Source: a virus. Taken from it: a stretch of 30,991 nt of DNA. The number at the start of each line of letters is the position of its first letter. The stretch's first letter is position 1. The stretch covers positions 1 through 30,991 of the IMG/VR virus record IMGVR_UViG_3300045988_126185. One strand, given 5' to 3'. Made by a program: the position numbers and the translations under genes. Shown in pieces: positions 2,589-25,991 of the stretch. The notes under the pieces are model-generated. The model was not told the origin of the DNA. It made no database searches and saw only the letters and a program-made list of their open reading frames with translations.

Positions 2589-3214
2589 AAATGAAAAGAA
2601 AACTTAAAAAATGGGTTAAAATTTTAATTTTTATACTATTAATTATATTGATAATTATATTATTATTTTTCATTAAAAAAATAAATGTAAAAGAGCCAAT
2701 AAAAGAAAAAAATATAAATATAAAATATAAAAAGCATATTTATACAAATGAAAATTATCAATTACAAAATGAAATAGATAATTATTTAGAACAAAAAAGA
2801 ATTGAAGAAATTAAAAGAAAAGAAGAAGAAATAAAAAGATTAAATTCTATGAAAACTTATGAAACAAGATTAACGAGTTATTATTTAGGAGATAATACAG
2901 AAACAACGACTAAAACTGGTAGTGGATTAGATATTTACGATTTTGAAGTTAATAATAATGGTTGGTATACTTATCAAGGAAAGTTAGTTGTTGCGACTGC
3001 TACAAATTATCTTATAAAATATGGATTTGTATTAGGAGAAAATATTAAAACATATAAATATTATGATGAATTGGTTTTAAATATAGATGGTATTGATTAT
3101 CAAGCAATAGTTTTAGATAGCTGTGGTAGTTCAATGAAAACTGGAAGAATAGACTTGTTTGTTTCAAATAAAGAAAGTGTAAAAGATACAAAAATAATAG
3201 TAAAGGAGAAATAA
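2585..3214 (+). CDS. Membrane-anchored 3D-domain protein, a candidate peptidoglycan-binding or lytic-transglycosylase-like protein (YocH/MltA 3D family).
   Basis: N-terminal TM (ILIFILLIILIIILLFFI). C-terminal YYLGDNTETTTKTGSG...IVLDSCGSSMKTGRIDLFV resembles the 3D-domain Asp motifs. Confidence 0.5.
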   Translation: MKMKRKLKKWVKILIFILLIILIIILLFFIKKINVKEPIKEKNINIKYKKHIYTNENYQLQNEIDNYLEQKRIEEIKRKEEEIKRLNSMKTYETRLTSYYLGDNTETTTKTGSGLDIYDFEVNNNGWYTYQGKLVVATATNYLIKYGFVLGENIKTYKYYDELVLNIDGIDYQAIVLDSCGSSMKTGRIDLFVSNKESVKDTKIIVKEK

Positions 3215-10998: not shown

Positions 10999-11222
10999 TG
11001 ATTAATGTTTTTAAAGAAAATAAAGAATTAAAAAAAGAAAACATACGATTAAAAATGAAAATAAGTGATGATGATTATTATCATAAAACTTTTTTAAAAA
11101 GAGAACAGTATTACATCAATAAAATTGATGATTTACAAGAAAAAGTAAAACAACTTCAAAAAGAATTAATTGAATTATATGAAAAGAATTATGAATTAGC
11201 AAAGAAACTTAATAAGGAGTAA
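10998..11222 (+). CDS. Hypothetical coiled-coil protein (74 aa).
   Basis: ORF, ATGA-coupled. Confidence 0.4.
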   Translation: MINVFKENKELKKENIRLKMKISDDDYYHKTFLKREQYYINKIDDLQEKVKQLQKELIELYEKNYELAKKLNKE

Positions 11223-11224
11223 TT

Positions 11225-11701
11225 ATGAAAAAAATAGAAATTAAATATATACCAATAGATGATATAAAACCTTATATAAATAACCCTAGATTAAATGAAG
11301 AGGCTATTCCTTATGTTATGAATAGTATAAAAGAGTTTGGATTTAAAAACCCTATTATATTAGATAAAAACAATGTAATAGTAGCAGGACATACTAGATT
11401 AGAAAGTGCTAAAAGACTTGATATGAAAGAAGTACCAGTTATTTATGCTGATGACTTAACTAAAGAACAAATAAAAGCATTTAGATTAGCAGATAATAAA
11501 GTTAGTGAAAAATCAATATGGGACTATACTAAGTTAGATGAAGAATTAGAAAATATTTTAGATATTGATATGAGCATGTTTGATTTTGAGAATATAGAAG
11601 AAACTAATTTAGATGATTTTTTTGAAGATAACGATAATAAAAAAGAAAAGGAGAGTAAACTTATAGAATGCCCTCATTGTCATAAGCCTATTGAACTGTG
11701 A
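11225..11701 (+). CDS. ParB-like nuclease domain protein (ParB N-terminal/sulfiredoxin fold); possible DpdB-like partner of DpdA.
   Basis: IPIDDIKPYINNPR...NPIILDKNNVIVAGHTRLESAKRL...LADN matches ParB N-terminal motifs. Overlap-coupled (GTGA) to the downstream TGT-like gene. Confidence 0.6.
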   Translation: MKKIEIKYIPIDDIKPYINNPRLNEEAIPYVMNSIKEFGFKNPIILDKNNVIVAGHTRLESAKRLDMKEVPVIYADDLTKEQIKAFRLADNKVSEKSIWDYTKLDEELENILDIDMSMFDFENIEETNLDDFFEDNDNKKEKESKLIECPHCHKPIEL

Positions 11702-12441
11702 AAGTATTTTTGGCTTCAACAAGTAGTAGAGAAAATATGGGAGAGAGTGAACTAAATAAAATTCCATATATTTTAGAAAGTTTTTATACAATAAAAAATG
11801 AAAGAACATTAAATAGAATAAAAAATATAAATAAAAAGAAATTTTTGTTAGACAGTGGAGCATTTACTTTTATGAATGGTCATAAAGGAAAAGTTGACTG
11901 GAATAAATACATAGAAGATTATGCAAAATTCATTAATAAATATAATATAAAATATTTTTTTGAATTAGATATAGATGTAGTTGTAGGTATTAAAGAAGTT
12001 GAAAGATTAAGAAAAAAGCTTGAAATGTTAACTCACAAACAATGCATCCCAGTATGGCATAAATCTAGAGGATTAGAATATTATAAAAGAATGTGTAAAG
12101 AGTATAATTATATAGCAATTGGTGGAATAGTTATAGGAGAAATAAAAAAACAAGATTATAAAGTGTTTATTCCATTATTAAAAATTGCTAAAGAAAATAA
12201 TTGCAAAGTACACGGATTAGGTTTCACGGTAACGAGAGAACTTAACAAGTATCACTTTTATAGTGTTGATAGTACAAATTGGTTGTCTGGTGGAAGATTT
12301 GGACAATTACATACATTTAATGGAAAGTTTATTGAAAGTAAAAGTTTTAAAAACAAAAGAGCAAAAGATTATAAGCAAATAGATAAACATAATTTAGAGC
12401 AATGGATAAAGTTTCAAAATTATGCAGATAAATATTTATAA
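11698..12441 (+). CDS. dpdA: TGT-like transglycosylase of the DpdA type (7-deazaguanine DNA base-exchange enzyme), lacking the Zn-binding C-terminus of tRNA TGT.
   Basis: LLDSGAFTF resembles TGT LTDSGGFQ (catalytic Asp). NYIAIGGIVIGE resembles TGT GYAIGGLSVGE. VHGLGFT resembles LMGVGTP. Short length, GTG start, and a preQ0/preQ1 transporter gene lies downstream. Confidence 0.6.
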   Translation: MKVFLASTSSRENMGESELNKIPYILESFYTIKNERTLNRIKNINKKKFLLDSGAFTFMNGHKGKVDWNKYIEDYAKFINKYNIKYFFELDIDVVVGIKEVERLRKKLEMLTHKQCIPVWHKSRGLEYYKRMCKEYNYIAIGGIVIGEIKKQDYKVFIPLLKIAKENNCKVHGLGFTVTRELNKYHFYSVDSTNWLSGGRFGQLHTFNGKFIESKSFKNKRAKDYKQIDKHNLEQWIKFQNYADKYL

Positions 12442-12480
12442 GTAGTATGCAAAAACCTACTATAAAAAACTAAAGGAGAG
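12441..12480 (+). ncRNA. Candidate preQ1-I riboswitch aptamer: P1 AGUAG/CUACU, 11-nt loop ending AC, tail AUAAAAAACUAA running into the RBS.
   Basis: As I recall it, the tail is identical to the B. subtilis queC preQ1-I aptamer tail (CUAUAAAAAACUAA). There is a 5-bp P1, and it sits immediately 5' of a YhhQ/COG1738 gene, the classic genomic context. Confidence 0.5.
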
Positions 12481-13131
12481 ATTAAAATAAAAAAAGATAA
12501 AAAAATAAGTAAATTATTATTAGGACTAATTATTTTATATACAATTAGTTTCTTGATAAGCAATATTATAACAATTAAACAAATAATTTTACCATTTGGA
12601 ATAACAATGACAAGTGCAGTTATATTATTTCCGATAGTATATATATTAAGCGATGTATTTAGTGAAGTATATGGTTATAGATGGAGTAGAAATACAAGAT
12701 ATATAGCATTTGTAAGTAATTTATTTATGGTATTAATATTCACATTAGTAATAAAACTACCAAGTGCAAGTACATTCACAGGACAAGAAGCGTTGATACA
12801 AACATTAGGAAGCACACCAAAGGTATTATTTGCTTCATTATTAGCATATTTAGTTGGAGATTTTGTAAATGATAAAATATTTGCTAAAATGAAAGAAAAA
12901 CATACTGATACAAAAGGATTTGGAATAAGAGCAATATTATCCAGTTTATTTGGAGAATTAGTAGATAGTTCTATATTCTTACCAATTGTATTTTTAGGAG
13001 TATTACCAATTAATATAATAATTACAATGGCAATAACTCAAGTAATATTAAAAGTAAGTTATGAAGTAATAATGTTACCTATAACAAAGTTAGTTGTTAA
13101 AAAAGCAAAATTATACGAAGAAAATAACTAA
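12481..13131 (+). CDS. yhhQ: YhhQ-family (COG1738) queuosine-precursor (preQ0/preQ1) transporter; likely a non-canonical ATT or ATA start after RBS AAAGGAGAG.
   Basis: ISNIITIKQIILPFGITMTSAVILFPIVYILSDVFSEVYG aligns with E. coli YhhQ SSNYLVQLPVSILGFHTTWGAFSFPFIFLATDLTVRIFG. Conserved TM1 (KLLLGLIILYTISFL) is encoded upstream of the first canonical start (TTG 12553), in frame, with no ATG/GTG/TTG available. Confidence 0.65.
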   Translation: MKIKKDKKISKLLLGLIILYTISFLISNIITIKQIILPFGITMTSAVILFPIVYILSDVFSEVYGYRWSRNTRYIAFVSNLFMVLIFTLVIKLPSASTFTGQEALIQTLGSTPKVLFASLLAYLVGDFVNDKIFAKMKEKHTDTKGFGIRAILSSLFGELVDSSIFLPIVFLGVLPINIIITMAITQVILKVSYEVIMLPITKLVVKKAKLYEENN

Positions 13132-13151
13132 AATAAAAAGGAAGTGATACT

Positions 13152-13517
13152 ATGGCTAAAGAAGATAATTTAATACCAGGAGGACATAAATTAACAAGAG
13201 AAGAACAGTCGAGGGCTGGTAAACGTAGTGGAGAAGTAAGAGCATTAAAGAAAACCTTTAAAATGGCTCTTAAAGAACTATTACAAGAAGAAGTAAAAGA
13301 TAAAAAAGGAAATCCATCTGGAAAAACTTATCAAGATTTAGTAAACATAGGTCTTGTAAAAGGTGCTATGAAAGGGAATGCTATTAATTATAAAACTATT
13401 TTAGAAACAATAGGAGAAATAGAAGCAGAAAAAACCGAAGTATCAGTTCCTACAATAAAATTAGAAGTAGTAGATAATAGTAAGCTAGAGAGTGTGTTAT
13501 ATGAAGATAAAAAGTAA
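13152..13517 (+). CDS. Hypothetical basic protein; a possible DNA-binding or small terminase candidate.
   Basis: ORF with RBS AAGGAAG; basic N-terminus PGGHKLTREEQSRAGKRSGEVRA. Confidence 0.4.
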   Translation: MAKEDNLIPGGHKLTREEQSRAGKRSGEVRALKKTFKMALKELLQEEVKDKKGNPSGKTYQDLVNIGLVKGAMKGNAINYKTILETIGEIEAEKTEVSVPTIKLEVVDNSKLESVLYEDKK

Positions 13518-13857
13518 CAAGTATCACAACACTAAAGTTATCTATAATGGAATAAAGTTCGATAGTAAAAAAGAAAGAGACAGATATATTACTTTAAAAC
13601 AACTAGAAAAAGCAGGAATAATAAAAGAATTAGAACTACAACCAAAGTTCTTATTATTAGATACAATTCATTATAAAGGTAAAACATACCCTAAAACCTA
13701 TTATAAAGCCGATTTCAAGTACTTTGATAATGAAAAGGATAAATATATAGTTGAAGATGTTAAAAGCACTATAACAGCAAAAGATAAGGTATATAGGCTT
13801 AAAATAAAAATGTTATTAACAAAATATCCTGATATAGACTTTGTTGAAGTAATATGA
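13501..13857 (+). CDS. DUF1064 family phage protein.
   Basis: KYHNTKVIYNGIKFDSKKERDRY...ADFKY...VEDVKS pattern; the ATG at 13501 is preferred over 13492. Confidence 0.5.
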   Translation: MKIKSNKYHNTKVIYNGIKFDSKKERDRYITLKQLEKAGIIKELELQPKFLLLDTIHYKGKTYPKTYYKADFKYFDNEKDKYIVEDVKSTITAKDKVYRLKIKMLLTKYPDIDFVEVI

Positions 13858-13863
13858 TATAAT
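13855..13863 (+). promoter_or_regulatory. Extended -10 element TGATATAAT, the same 9-mer as in P3, overlapping the DUF1064 stop codon, with a weak -35 (TAGACT). Candidate promoter for the structured leader and the packaging genes.
   Basis: Sequence motif. Downstream TAATGTGATG (13864-13873) repeats the P3 operator-like half-site. Confidence 0.35.
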
Positions 13864-14241
13864 TAATGTGATGGAAAAAGTGTTTTACAATTTCCTTGCA
13901 TGCTATCTTTATAGGTAGCATAGAGTAGATAACAAATTACTACGGTGAGCTAGATAGCCGACTACATTATCTATTCTATGGTGTCTATAAGGCACTAGAA
14001 ATTCTTATTTTATTTGCTATACGAACTCTGAGAGGATAAGATAGTAAATAGCATTACCTTTAACAGGTAGTGTCTAATGATATATAAAAAGAGAGAAGTA
14101 AAGAGGTATCGTTCAAGAGTAATTAACTTGTTCGCTTTAGGAAATAGTTAGATAAGCCCTTGTATACTAACTTATAACAAGGTCAAACCTTTATATCATT
14201 AGACAGTATCTATTAAAGATACAAAGAAAGGAATTAAAATT
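13864..14241 (+). ncRNA. About 380-nt ORF-free, GC-richer structured region upstream of the packaging genes. Candidate long 5' leader, ribozyme-like RNA or degenerate group-I-like element.
   Basis: No ORF in any frame. Base composition is distinct from the flanks. It contains a GCCGACUACA (group I R-like) element and shares AAGGUCAAAC with the tape-measure intron. Confidence 0.3.
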
Positions 14242-16662: not shown

Positions 16663-16705
16663 GAATACACTAGAAAAGTGCAATAAATGTGTCGAAACAT
16701 AGGAA

Positions 16706-16740
16706 GCATAAGGATAGTAATATCTTTATGCTTTTTATTT
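16706..16740 (+). terminator. Intrinsic terminator in the P4 leader: an 11-bp stem with GUAA loop, then TTTTTATTTT. Defines a ~70-nt leader or sRNA and an attenuation point before the late genes.
   Basis: Hairpin GCATAAGGATA/TATCTTTATGC plus a U-tract, read directly. Confidence 0.55.
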
Positions 16741-16759
16741 TGTAGAAAGGAGGTATAAA

Positions 16760-17113
16760 ATGATAAAATTACTTAAAAATACGATAGAAAATATAAGTGC
16801 TTTTTTTACTAATATTTGTGACGAAATTGTTAAAAAAATACAAAAAATAAAAAAATATTATGAAAATAGTAAAAAATGGAAATTATATCTCTATTTAAAC
16901 GGACAATGTATTAAATGTTTAAAAATAGATAAAGACTTCGCTCCAATGAATAAAATTTATGTAGTAAAAGTTAAAAATATGGAACATCTATTAGGCACAA
17001 ATAAACCTGTACAAATAGTTGTTAGAAGTTATAAGTATAAATATACTGATGAAGTTAAAAAAACGGCTCATATAGAAGTTATTATATACGAGGGGGTGGA
17101 AATAAATGAATAA
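16760..17113 (+). CDS. Hypothetical protein (117 aa).
   Basis: ORF with RBS AAAGGAGG. Confidence 0.45.
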   Translation: MIKLLKNTIENISAFFTNICDEIVKKIQKIKKYYENSKKWKLYLYLNGQCIKCLKIDKDFAPMNKIYVVKVKNMEHLLGTNKPVQIVVRSYKYKYTDEVKKTAHIEVIIYEGVEINE

Positions 17114-23320: not shown

Positions 23321-23802
23321 ATGAACGGTGGCGAGGTAGTATTTCATTTTAAAGGCAACGATAAAGATTTGGATAAAAAAACAAGTGAATTAAGTTCTAA
23401 ACTTGGAAATATTGGTAAATCTATCGGTGGAGCATTTTTAAAAGGTACAGCAGTGGCTGGGGCTTCGCTAACAGCTATGGTAGGAGCTAGCGTTAAAGCT
23501 TTTGCTAATGTAGAACAGTCAATAGGTGGTGTTGAAACATTGTTTAAAGATAGTGCTTCAACAGTTATAGCCAATGCAAAAAAAGCTTACACGACGGCTG
23601 GAGTAAGTGCTAATGATTATATGGAGCAGGTAACTTCATTTAGTGCTAGTTTATTACAGTCTCTAGGTGGAGATACAGCTAAGGCAGCAGAATACGCCGA
23701 TAGAGCAATAGTTGATATGTCAGATAATGCTAATAAAATGGGTACATCTATGGAAATGATACAAAATGCATATCAAGGTTTCGCAAAACAAAATTATACG
23801 AT
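23321..23802 (+). CDS. Tape measure protein, exon 1.
   Basis: Conserved TMP N-terminal region ending ...NAYQGFAKQNYT. The unspliced frame terminates at a TAA 17 nt later. Confidence 0.7.
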
Positions 23803-24118
23803 AAAATTAATGTCTGCTTAATTAGTGATAATTAAGTAAGTGTATGTGAACCTTATCAAGGGTGTGAGATTAAAATATAAGTAGGAAATGACTTGTTGAG
23901 ATAATCTTGCTAACTGGGGAAGCCTAAGTCTAAAAGATATGGTTATCCAGTGCCAAGCCTATAAATAGGAAGGTCAAACGACTATGAGTTCGTTACTCAG
24001 TACATTTACTATTGATACGTAAATGGAAGTGCATACTATCTCAAATGTGAGATAAAGATATAGTCTAATCCCACTTTTAAATAAGTGTTAAAGTACTAGG
24101 AAACTAGGGGTATAAATG
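23803..24118 (+). ncRNA. Group I self-splicing intron (no ORF) interrupting the tape-measure gene.
   Basis: Exon junction restores the conserved ...QNYT-M-LDNLKLGYGG. U before the 5' splice site; terminal G (omega-G). Internal group I R-like (ACGACUAUGA) and S-like (AAGAUAUAGUCU) elements that can form P7. P/Q-like CUGGGGAAGCC / AUCCAGUGCC. The 5' boundary is ambiguous by 9 nt (23803 or 23812). Confidence 0.7.
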
Positions 24119-25991
24119 GTTAGATAATTTGAAGCTTGGATATGGTGGTACAAAAGAAGAGATGGCAAGGCTTATAAAAGACGCTTCTAAAATGACCGAT
24201 GTACAAAAAGAATTAAATGTATCGGTTAAAGATGGAGATATGTCATTTGGTAATATAGTTAATGCTATTTCCGTAATGCAAAAGAAAATGGGTATAGCAG
24301 GAACAACTACAAAAGAAGCTTCCGAAACAATAAGCGGGTCTATCAATAGTGCTAAAGCAAGTTTTCAAAACTTTTTAGCAGGTACTGGTTCAATAGACCA
24401 AGTTATTTCAACTTTTTCAACAGCTGGGCAAAATATAATGAAAGCTATTGTTAAGATGGCACCAGATATAATTGATGGAATAGTCACTTTAATAAATGCA
24501 ATTGTACCACAAATACCAGCACTAGTTGGAGCTTTACTACCAACTGTTATAAATGGTATTTCTTCACTTATAAGTGGCTTAGCTGGGGCTTTGCCAGAAT
24601 TATTAAAAGTATTAATGGATACATTAATAGAACAAGGACCGATAATATTACAAACATTAATGGATAGTGTTTTAGATATAGTTTATTCTCTTTCTGATAC
24701 ATTACCAACATTAATACCACAAATAGTTAAAGCCATAATGACTTTATTACCAGTATTATTGAGTAATATGCCAGCTTTTATGAAAGCAGGAATTGAATTA
24801 ATAATGGCTGTGATAAATGGATTAGTTGATAGTATTCCTATTTTAATTGATATGCTACCAGATTTAATAGAAGAATTGGTTAATGGTCTTATATCTGCAC
24901 TACCTATGCTATTAGGTGTAGGAATGGCTATAAATATAAAACTTGCACAAGCAATTATTAAAGCAGTGCCAAAATTAATAAGTTCTATACCAAAAATTAT
25001 TAATTCTTTAGTAGAAGGATTTAAAAAAGGAGTATCAAATTTTGCCTTTGTAGGTAAAAGTTTAATTGATGGATTAGGCTCAGAAATAACAACAGGTGCG
25101 TCACAATTAGGTCAAAAAATATTAACATCTGTAACAAATTTCTTTACTAAAACTATACCTTCAATATTTAATAATTTTGTTTCATTCTTAGCTAGTATTC
25201 CTGCAAAAATAGGGGAATTTGTGCAAGGAGTTATATCATTTATTGGGCAAATACCTTACTATGTAGGATATGCAATAGGGTATGTAATAGGATTTATTGC
25301 TTCTATACCTTTTAGATTATGGGAAATTTTAACTTCTGCAGTAGAAAAAGTAAAAGAGTTCGGGATTTCAATATGGACATGGATAACTGTTGATTTACCA
25401 CAAATAATACAAGGTATCATCAACTGGTTTGCACAATTACCAGGTAGAATATGGACATGGCTAACAACTACTATATCAAATTTTGCTACATGGTTAGGAA
25501 ATATGAAAACTAAAGCAGTTGAAGGAATTAAAAAAGTTGCAAATTCAATTGTAAATGGGTTCAAATCTTTACCAGATAAAATATTCAATGTAGGTAAAAA
25601 CCTTATCCGTGGATTATGGAACGGTATAGTAGGAATGAAAGATTGGATTAGTGGAAAGGTTAAAGGATTTGCTTCTGGAGTTATAAATGGATTTAAAAAA
25701 TCGTTCGGAGTTCATAGTCCGTCACGTGAGTTTGCTATAATAGGTAGATTTAATATGCTAGGATTAGAAAAAGGTATGGAAGATATGCAACCTGATTTAC
25801 AAAAATCAATAAATGGTATGTTTGATTTATCGCCTAGTTTATATGGTTCTACAAGTAATAATTTAAGTCCAAATATAAATGTAACAGTAAATAATAACAT
25901 GAAACAAGACCCACTAGGACAAATGATTAATGATGTTAAAACTTTCTCTGGTGGCTCTAAAAACGATTATAGTTATGGAATGGGAGTGTAG
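24119..25991 (+). CDS. Tape measure protein, exon 2.
   Basis: Open frame from 24108. (M)LDNLKLGYGGTKEEMARL... is the conserved TMP continuation, and the frame is contiguous with exon 1 after removing 316 nt. Confidence 0.7.

Follow-up and report, generated by a model that had tools for sequence, protein, structure and literature searches.

The stretch of viral DNA considered here (IMG/VR record IMGVR_UViG_3300045988_126185, positions 1 to 30,991 of that record, hereafter called the window) carries a gene related to the transglycosylase DpdA directly upstream of yhhQ, a gene for a queuosine-precursor transporter, and it raises the question whether the few nucleotides that join the two genes hold a riboswitch through which a phage would adjust precursor import. 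Riboswitches for prequeuosine-1 (preQ1) are known to control yhhQ, and those of type II bind preQ1 better than preQ0 and preQ0 better than guanine (PMC11625349). We consider nucleotides 12441-12473 to be a probable preQ1 aptamer of class I, type II, lying intercistronically between the DpdA-like gene and yhhQ on a polycistronic phage mRNA, and on the strength of sequence comparison we put the probability of this reading at roughly 0.72. The class itself and its association with yhhQ are well known and it is the phage 7-deazaguanine setting that appears to be unreported, as a literature search returned no paper joining DpdA and a riboswitch, or a preQ1 riboswitch, a phage and YhhQ. Phage-carried riboswitches are uncommon.

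Direct reading of the sequence bears out the geometry described in an earlier note on this DNA, namely a stem, P1, of 5 bp around an 11-nucleotide (nt) loop ending in AC, placed directly after the dpdA stop. The pairs are A12441-U12461, G12442-C12460, U12443-A12459, A12444-U12458 and G12445-C12457, and the final base of the upstream stop codon, TAA 12439-12441, is at the same time the first base of P1. The terminal dinucleotide of the loop, A12455-C12456, is the AC motif before the 3' strand of P1 by which type II is recognized (PMC11625349), and by homology with the aptamers described in the same paper U12446 would correspond to U6, a ligand contact, and C12456 to the specificity cytosine. 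P1 is followed at 12462-12473 by the 12-nt tail AUAAAAAACUAA, which runs directly into AGGAGAG and hence into the ribosome binding site, just as the earlier note had it. That note had furthermore given the tail as identical to that of the Bacillus subtilis queC aptamer, and this proves right at all 12 nt, since PMC10639078 shows the sequence AGAGGUUCUAGCUACACCCUCUAUAAAAAACUAAGG for the B. subtilis aptamer and the post-P1 tail in it equals that of the window.

A family of relatives with a covarying stem

A search with the YhhQ protein found relatives encoded on 66 viral contigs (L numbers below denote these and other contigs). The element is identical in the three closest, L001-L003, whose YhhQ proteins are 94-96% identical to that of the window; it is in fact 100% conserved between these and the window while the flanks diverge. 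Variant elements are found in L007 and L026, and RF00522, the PreQ1 family of Rfam, matches before yhhQ in L001, L007 and L026 as well, with 22-24 bits and at the equivalent site. Scanning viral contigs and metagenomes with DNA patterns enlarged the collection to 31 distinct variants, in which around ten different P1 helices occur, all of them fully paired (AGUAG, AGUUG, AGUGG, AGCUG, AGCGG, AGAGG, AGCAG, AGAUG, GGUGG and others).

The figures on covariation and invariance refer to alignment A2, which contains 24 of the variants. P1 is 100% paired over 120 cells, with compensatory double changes at three of the five pairs (21 cells), and whereas none of 500 shuffles reached the covariation score, sliding the strands out of register lowers the paired fraction to 21-62%. 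The same P1 helix is predicted by RNAalifold unaided, and the closing pair G12445-C12457 is GC in 24 of 24 variants. Invariant in the alignment are furthermore G5, U6, G9, A12, the trinucleotide AAC (A14, A15 and C16) that precedes the P1 3' strand, C17 and the A-run. The invariant unpaired positions coincide with the class I alpha-site, which is made up of the specificity cytosine beside the 3' strand of P1, U6, the last adenine of the loop L3 and a G-C floor, the guanine of which contacts the aminomethyl group of preQ1 through its O6 (PMC11625349). A model built from the family found the element of L006, which was outside the training set, at 31.3 bits with all else at or below 17 bits in 454 kb, and with filters off it found one site in the window, the window itself being a training sequence. 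The 31 variants, the covariation of P1 and the invariant contact positions thus support the earlier proposal of a candidate preQ1-I aptamer.

The genomic context is likewise consistent. The gene after the element encodes Vut_1/YhhQ in nearly all variants, the exceptions being QueC in L108 and an open reading frame (ORF) of 106 amino acids (aa) overlapping YhhQ in L188, and the gene before it encodes a DpdA-like protein, QueC, a DUF6884 protein or a protein of about 105 aa. For 16 of 20 loci the distance between the upstream stop and P1 is -1 to 6 nt, and the element is therefore intercistronic and not a 5' leader. GGAG or a close variant of it follows 0-1 nt past the tail in most variants, with the start codon 6-9 nt beyond, and the Shine-Dalgarno (SD) sequence is found farther downstream in L073, L108, L134 and L159. 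The parts of the element and the genes around it are listed in Table 1.

Table 1. Parts of the candidate aptamer and neighbouring genes, in coordinates of the window
Feature	Position	Strand	Basis or remark
P1 5' strand AGUAG (aptamer positions 1-5)	12441-12445	+	G12445 corresponds to the pocket-floor guanine
Hairpin loop UAUGCAAAAAC, 11 nt, terminal AC	12446-12456	+	Direct reading
P1 3' strand CUACU	12457-12461	+	Standard pairs in 24/24 aligned variants
A-rich L3 AUAAAAAA, 8 nt	12462-12469	+	Matches B. subtilis in both length and sequence
CUAA, presumed 3' strand of P2	12470-12473	+	C in 29/31 variants; UA invariant
Shine-Dalgarno sequence AGGAGAG, core GGAG 12475-12478	12474-12480	+	Core 1 nt past presumed P2
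ORF with ParB_N domain, 158 aa	11225-11701	+	PF02195 1.4e-7; phrog_620 2.4e-53
TGT-family/DpdA-like ORF, 247 aa, GTG start	11698-12441	+	phrog_887 queuine tRNA-ribosyltransferase 9.4e-60
yhhQ (Vut_1 queuosine-precursor transporter), 214 codons from ATA 12487	12487-13131	+	PF02592 6.8e-40; TIGR00697 8.8e-29

Weighing the assignment

A number of observations weigh against the assignment of a preQ1 aptamer and are best considered together, the first of them being the score. An Rfam scan at the gathering threshold reports nothing. Under relaxed filters RF00522 matches over its full length (model positions 1-45) at 12436-12479 and scores 23.5 bits, where the gathering score is 39; in the family as a whole the scores range from 21.9 to 38.4 bits and none reaches 39. 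The earlier note had proposed this very search as its check and a score below gathering as a refutation, and formally that is what was found. We do not think, however, that this threshold, which is too strict for a motif of 34 nt with an AU-rich P1, decides the question, and with a score below gathering it is therefore the comparative evidence that has to settle it. The score of the window is low mainly because its P1 is AU-rich, relatives with a GC-richer P1 reaching 36.1 (L175, with the same UAUG loop), 37.4 (L218) and 38.4 bits (L181). It should also be mentioned that the match at 12436-12479 is the sole PreQ1 match in the whole 31-kb window, and that its E-value of 0.0056, obtained for a 181-nt region against all 4227 families, rescales to about 1e-6 (0.0056 / 4227) for the single family over the same spacer region.

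The P1 hairpin taken alone is weak too, and with -3.3 kcal/mol and z = -0.76 it is no stabler than shuffles, nor does the tail 12-mer reach significance by itself in so AT-rich a window, where 0.22 copies are expected per shuffled window and at least one is found in 21 of 100 shuffles. These figures and the sub-gathering score are in line with a chance resemblance arising in an AT-rich spacer, but that explanation is effectively refuted, and its probability negligible, in view of 31 variants with compensatory changes in P1, a constant gene context and the single-family E-value of about 1e-6. The pieces are weak separately and significant in combination.

A second difficulty concerns the pseudoknot, for which the earlier note had been unable to identify by eye a P2 pairing between loop and tail; comparison of the 31 variants likewise demonstrates none. 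The UAUG loop offers no Watson-Crick P2, its alignment with CUAA giving G-C, U.U, A.A and U-A, and the only consistent Watson-Crick candidate is G12449-C12470, of which the tail C is missing in two variants (those with UUCG and UUUG loops). Loop position 8 is furthermore U, C or G without any change of partner. Covariation of P2 was sought in four pattern scans of viral contigs and one of metagenomes in which tetrad and tail were left free, and these yielded variants of the tetrad and no consistent changes of a partner. With P2 covariation lacking and position 8 varying, the argument for a pseudoknot is therefore one of homology alone, and the SD sequence itself is not visibly paired either. 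Other registers were considered and rejected: a bulged P2 (U6-A32, A7-U31, G9-C30) leaves no L1 and consumes U6, a register like that of Thermoanaerobacter tengcongensis (A12-U31, C10 with a G of the SD sequence) fits the CUAAA tail of the window poorly, and pairing of UUCG with CGGA of the SD sequence is possible in the UUCG variants but has no counterpart in those with the UAUG loop. A minimal P2 together with indirect occlusion nevertheless has precedent, which by analogy may extend to the window, since only two of the four P2 steps of T. tengcongensis are canonical and since a type I switch regulates by 'indirect' occlusion of an SD sequence up to 10 nt away (PMC11625349).

Furthermore, the element is not indispensable. 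L226 and L227 (Logan contigs, ~1440-1500) have a YhhQ that is 88% identical to that of the window and the same gene order, and the aptamer is precisely absent from both; at their junction, which runs from ...UAUUUAUAA to AAAGGAGAG..., the upstream stop is directly followed by AAAGGAGAGAUUAUAAUG. So clean a polymorphism of presence and absence marks the element as an insertion or deletion, about 32 nt long, that is dispensable. The overlap of the stop codon with P1 also means that terminating ribosomes must unfold the aptamer in each round, which could weaken a switch. A conserved intercistronic hairpin without a ligand, serving mRNA stability or processing, a protein site or the coupling of termination to reinitiation, would be compatible with this dispensability in close relatives as well as with the position of the element a few nt from the upstream stop and with a P2 that is not demonstrable. 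Such a hairpin would on the other hand not be expected to keep 11 loop nucleotides and a 12-nt tail near-invariant while its stem covaries, and the facts that the invariant positions are those of the preQ1-I contacts, that RF00522 aligns from end to end and that the element is associated specifically with genes for queuosine/7-deazaguanine make it an improbable alternative to an aptamer.

Finally, the start of yhhQ in the window is irregular, with an ATA at 12487 where L001-L003 have ATG and with a 1-nt deletion in the spacer between the SD sequence and the start relative to these contigs. The start of the listed ORF, TTG 12553, corresponds to a TTA leucine codon in L001-L003. The change of ATG to ATA may reflect a weakly initiated yhhQ, an error in base calling or the beginning of gene decay, and the ORF is otherwise intact.

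Mode of control and choice of ligand

No terminator-like site and no nearby promoter on the + strand were found around the element, and the notion of a transcription-terminator platform was rejected for want of such a site. The lack of a terminator, the intercistronic position and the overlap of the dpdA stop with P1 together make translational control the likely mode. In the mechanism that we infer, which comprises ligand binding, the identity of the ligand, P2 and translational repression, preQ1 and/or preQ0 when plentiful would bind between P1 and the tail by pairing with C12456, and the bound base would be read by U12446 and A12469 above a floor formed by G12445-C12457. The A-rich L3 would dock in the minor groove of P1 and the CUAA tail would be drawn over the ligand (G12449-C12470). 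The resulting pseudoknot, compact and of the H type, would end 1 nt short of GGAG and lower the loading of 30S subunits on yhhQ. At low levels of the base, P1, which is weak, and the A-rich tail would remain open and the transporter would be made, and the switch would in this way adapt the import of precursor to the pool in the host that the transglycosylase uses.

Among known switches the closest likeness is to those of type II. The B. subtilis queC aptamer shares the 5-bp P1 closed by G-C, the AC, the tail and an L3 of 8 nt, but its loop is 12 nt long (UUCUAGCUACAC) and forms a canonical P2 of four steps (UAG/CUA), whereas the phage loop has 11 nt and no canonical P2. The B. subtilis switch is furthermore a transcription-termination switch in a 5' leader, unlike the phage element, which is intercistronic, lacks a terminator and abuts the SD sequence. 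The translational T. tengcongensis switch, also of class I, type II, shares the AC motif, an SD sequence at the 3' end of the pseudoknot and a P2 that is canonical only in part, and the 3' part of its loop is similar as well, being GCAGUAAC there and GCAAUAAC or GCAAAAAC in the phage elements. It differs in that its loop cytosines bury the first two guanines of the SD sequence in P2, while the phage loop has no bases that could pair with GGAG, and in that its L3 is of 9 nt as opposed to 8.

Type I (Carnobacterium antarcticum) and type III (Escherichia coli) have the H-type class I scaffold and the alpha-site in common with the phage element, and type III is linked to bacteria that use yhhQ. 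However, type I has UC before the 3' strand of P1, UU after the 5' strand and two ligands, where the window has AC and UA, and type III has UU after the 5' strand of P1 and a loop which is rich in pyrimidines and pairs with AAGG in the SD sequence, where the loop of the window is A-rich and contains no complement of AAGG. The signatures of both types are thus absent from the element of the window. By analogy, the indirect occlusion of the SD sequence in the style of type I would nonetheless seem the likeliest mode for the phage element. As for phages, Streptococcus phage MS1 has a queC-queD-queE-folE-yhhQ-tgt cluster in which YhhQ is 57% identical to that of the window and is found beside a TGT-family gene. 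MS1 has no spacer before its yhhQ and no annotated riboswitch, in contrast to the window with its candidate aptamer at this place, and in neither MS1 nor CDKM15 does the family model detect a copy.

The ligand may be questioned separately from the fold, as the same fold could be tuned to another 7-deazaguanine, either preQ0 or a derivative such as the 7-carboxy or 7-amido form. The subtype, found in this analysis in viral and metagenomic contigs only, would then be a specificity variant and no ordinary sensor of preQ1. The 5' part of the loop, UAUG, with A7 where a U or C would be expected, does differ from UUCUAG of B. subtilis and UCGCAG of T. tengcongensis. In a scan of 185,579 species-representative genomes the exact UAUG pattern gave 9 matches, none of them real, while patterns related to it, though not identical, returned some 18 or more genuine copies from viral contigs; this hints at a restriction to phages, a suggestion resting on a single strict pattern that establishes absence from bacteria only weakly. 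It is preQ0 that enzymes of the DpdA kind introduce into DNA, and the phage of the window has genes for a transglycosylase and a transporter but none for QueF or QueC, which would make preQ0 the relevant metabolite. Type II aptamers furthermore bind preQ0 already, in T. tengcongensis 17-fold more weakly than preQ1 (PMC11625349). Against such a specificity variant, all four determinants of the alpha-site are unchanged, including the floor G, the variants with UUCG and UACG loops form a transition to the Rfam consensus, with 37-38 bits, and the scan of bacterial genomes, made with one exact pattern, can carry little weight. We accordingly hold a changed specificity to be rather unlikely, and a class I, type II preQ1 aptamer remains the preferred reading.

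A bolder proposal, which we put forward tentatively and regard as doubtful, is that the UAUG elements constitute a phage-restricted subtype of preQ1-I that senses preQ0 or another precursor of DNA modification, and that they are mobile cassettes of about 32 nt in operons for 7-deazaguanine DNA hypermodification, gating reinitiation after an upstream stop rather than initiation in a 5' leader. If the element works by the mechanism set out above, these phages would gauge the preQ0/preQ1 pool of their host with an RNA of 33 nt and adjust the import of precursor, and this would add a regulatory layer to an anti-restriction pathway of DNA modification. It also follows from the family that the Rfam gathering score leaves out a coherent, covarying set of preQ1-I elements with AU-rich stems, and that nature provides a small series of aptamers (UAUG, UACG, UAGG, UUCG and UUUG loops) in which to study a minimal P2 in a class I pseudoknot.

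Neighbouring genes and other features of the window

The upstream gene had been called dpdA in the earlier note, and this holds in so far as the protein belongs to the TGT family and is DpdA-like by its PHROG match (Table 1), but a strong DpdA match is lacking, since the bacterial DpdA models give no more than 22.6-22.9 bits (NCBIfam DpdA 22.9 with a cut-off of 200; PADLOC DpdA). The protein has no Pfam match and a sequence search of the PDB gave nothing. The identification of the downstream gene as the yhhQ transporter is by contrast borne out by two profiles (Table 1). The ORF with the ParB_N domain shares 4 nt with the start of the TGT-like gene, and the order ParB_N, TGT-like, YhhQ is kept in L226-L228. 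Bacterial Dpd systems pair DpdA with the ParB-like DpdB, and by analogy we presume that the ParB_N ORF may be the phage counterpart of DpdB. The same ORF also matches 'MTase_II' of PADLOC. Homologues of QueC, QueD, QueE and FolE were not found in the window by tblastn with the MS1 proteins, and for its 7-deazaguanine base the phage must therefore depend on the host or on an outside source reached by way of YhhQ. The window is a tailed phage of the Bacillota type without a close cultured relative: no match to 11000-14000 was found by megablast among 50,697 phage records, and the closest cultured relatives by terminase are Bacillota phages at about 25% identity.

The proteins of about 105 aa are encoded upstream of the aptamer in L071, L084, L161, L164, L175 and L176 and downstream of it in L188 (1941-2261). 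One kind ends in ..CKTHFDV.. and the other has FCPLGNKGY near the N-terminus, and neither Pfam nor PHROG gave a match; we suppose that they might be QueF-like T-fold proteins.

Other phage yhhQ genes are preceded by leaders of a different kind. In L060 and L062 (both 2915-3003) and in L063 and L064 (2905-3003) there is a covarying stem of 6-8 bp with a loop of about 20 nt, UUUUGUA(A/G)..CCUU..GA, followed by an A-rich tail and AAGGAG, and RNAalifold pairs the pyrimidine run of this loop with the SD sequence. The leader has no Rfam match at E <= 10 and is possibly another pseudoknot riboswitch candidate, similar to type III. In L004, L008, L009 and L010 a hairpin, AGAGG-UC(G/A)..AC-CCU(U/C)U, is found about 60-30 nt upstream of yhhQ. 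Its loop resembles that of the T. tengcongensis aptamer. In place of an A-rich tail the hairpin has AUAUAGAUACUAAAAA after it, some 30 nt separate it from the ribosome binding site, and Rfam gave no match.

Elsewhere in the window, a weak match to RF03070, the ssNA-helicase RNA, at 16704-16747 on the + strand (23.4 bits, gathering score 41.5, E = 3.4), just upstream of the ORF at 16760-17113, is probably noise. The gene for the tape-measure protein is split, with ORFs at 23321-23821 and 24129-25991 that match consecutive parts of the tape-measure profiles (positions 16-168 and then 175-472 of phrog_3981, 250-477 and then 483-799 of phrog_991), and the gap of about 300 nt between them contains a full-length group I intron match at 23842-24088 on the + strand, at which RF00028 scores 48.3 bits (gathering score 50) with E = 1.6e-9.

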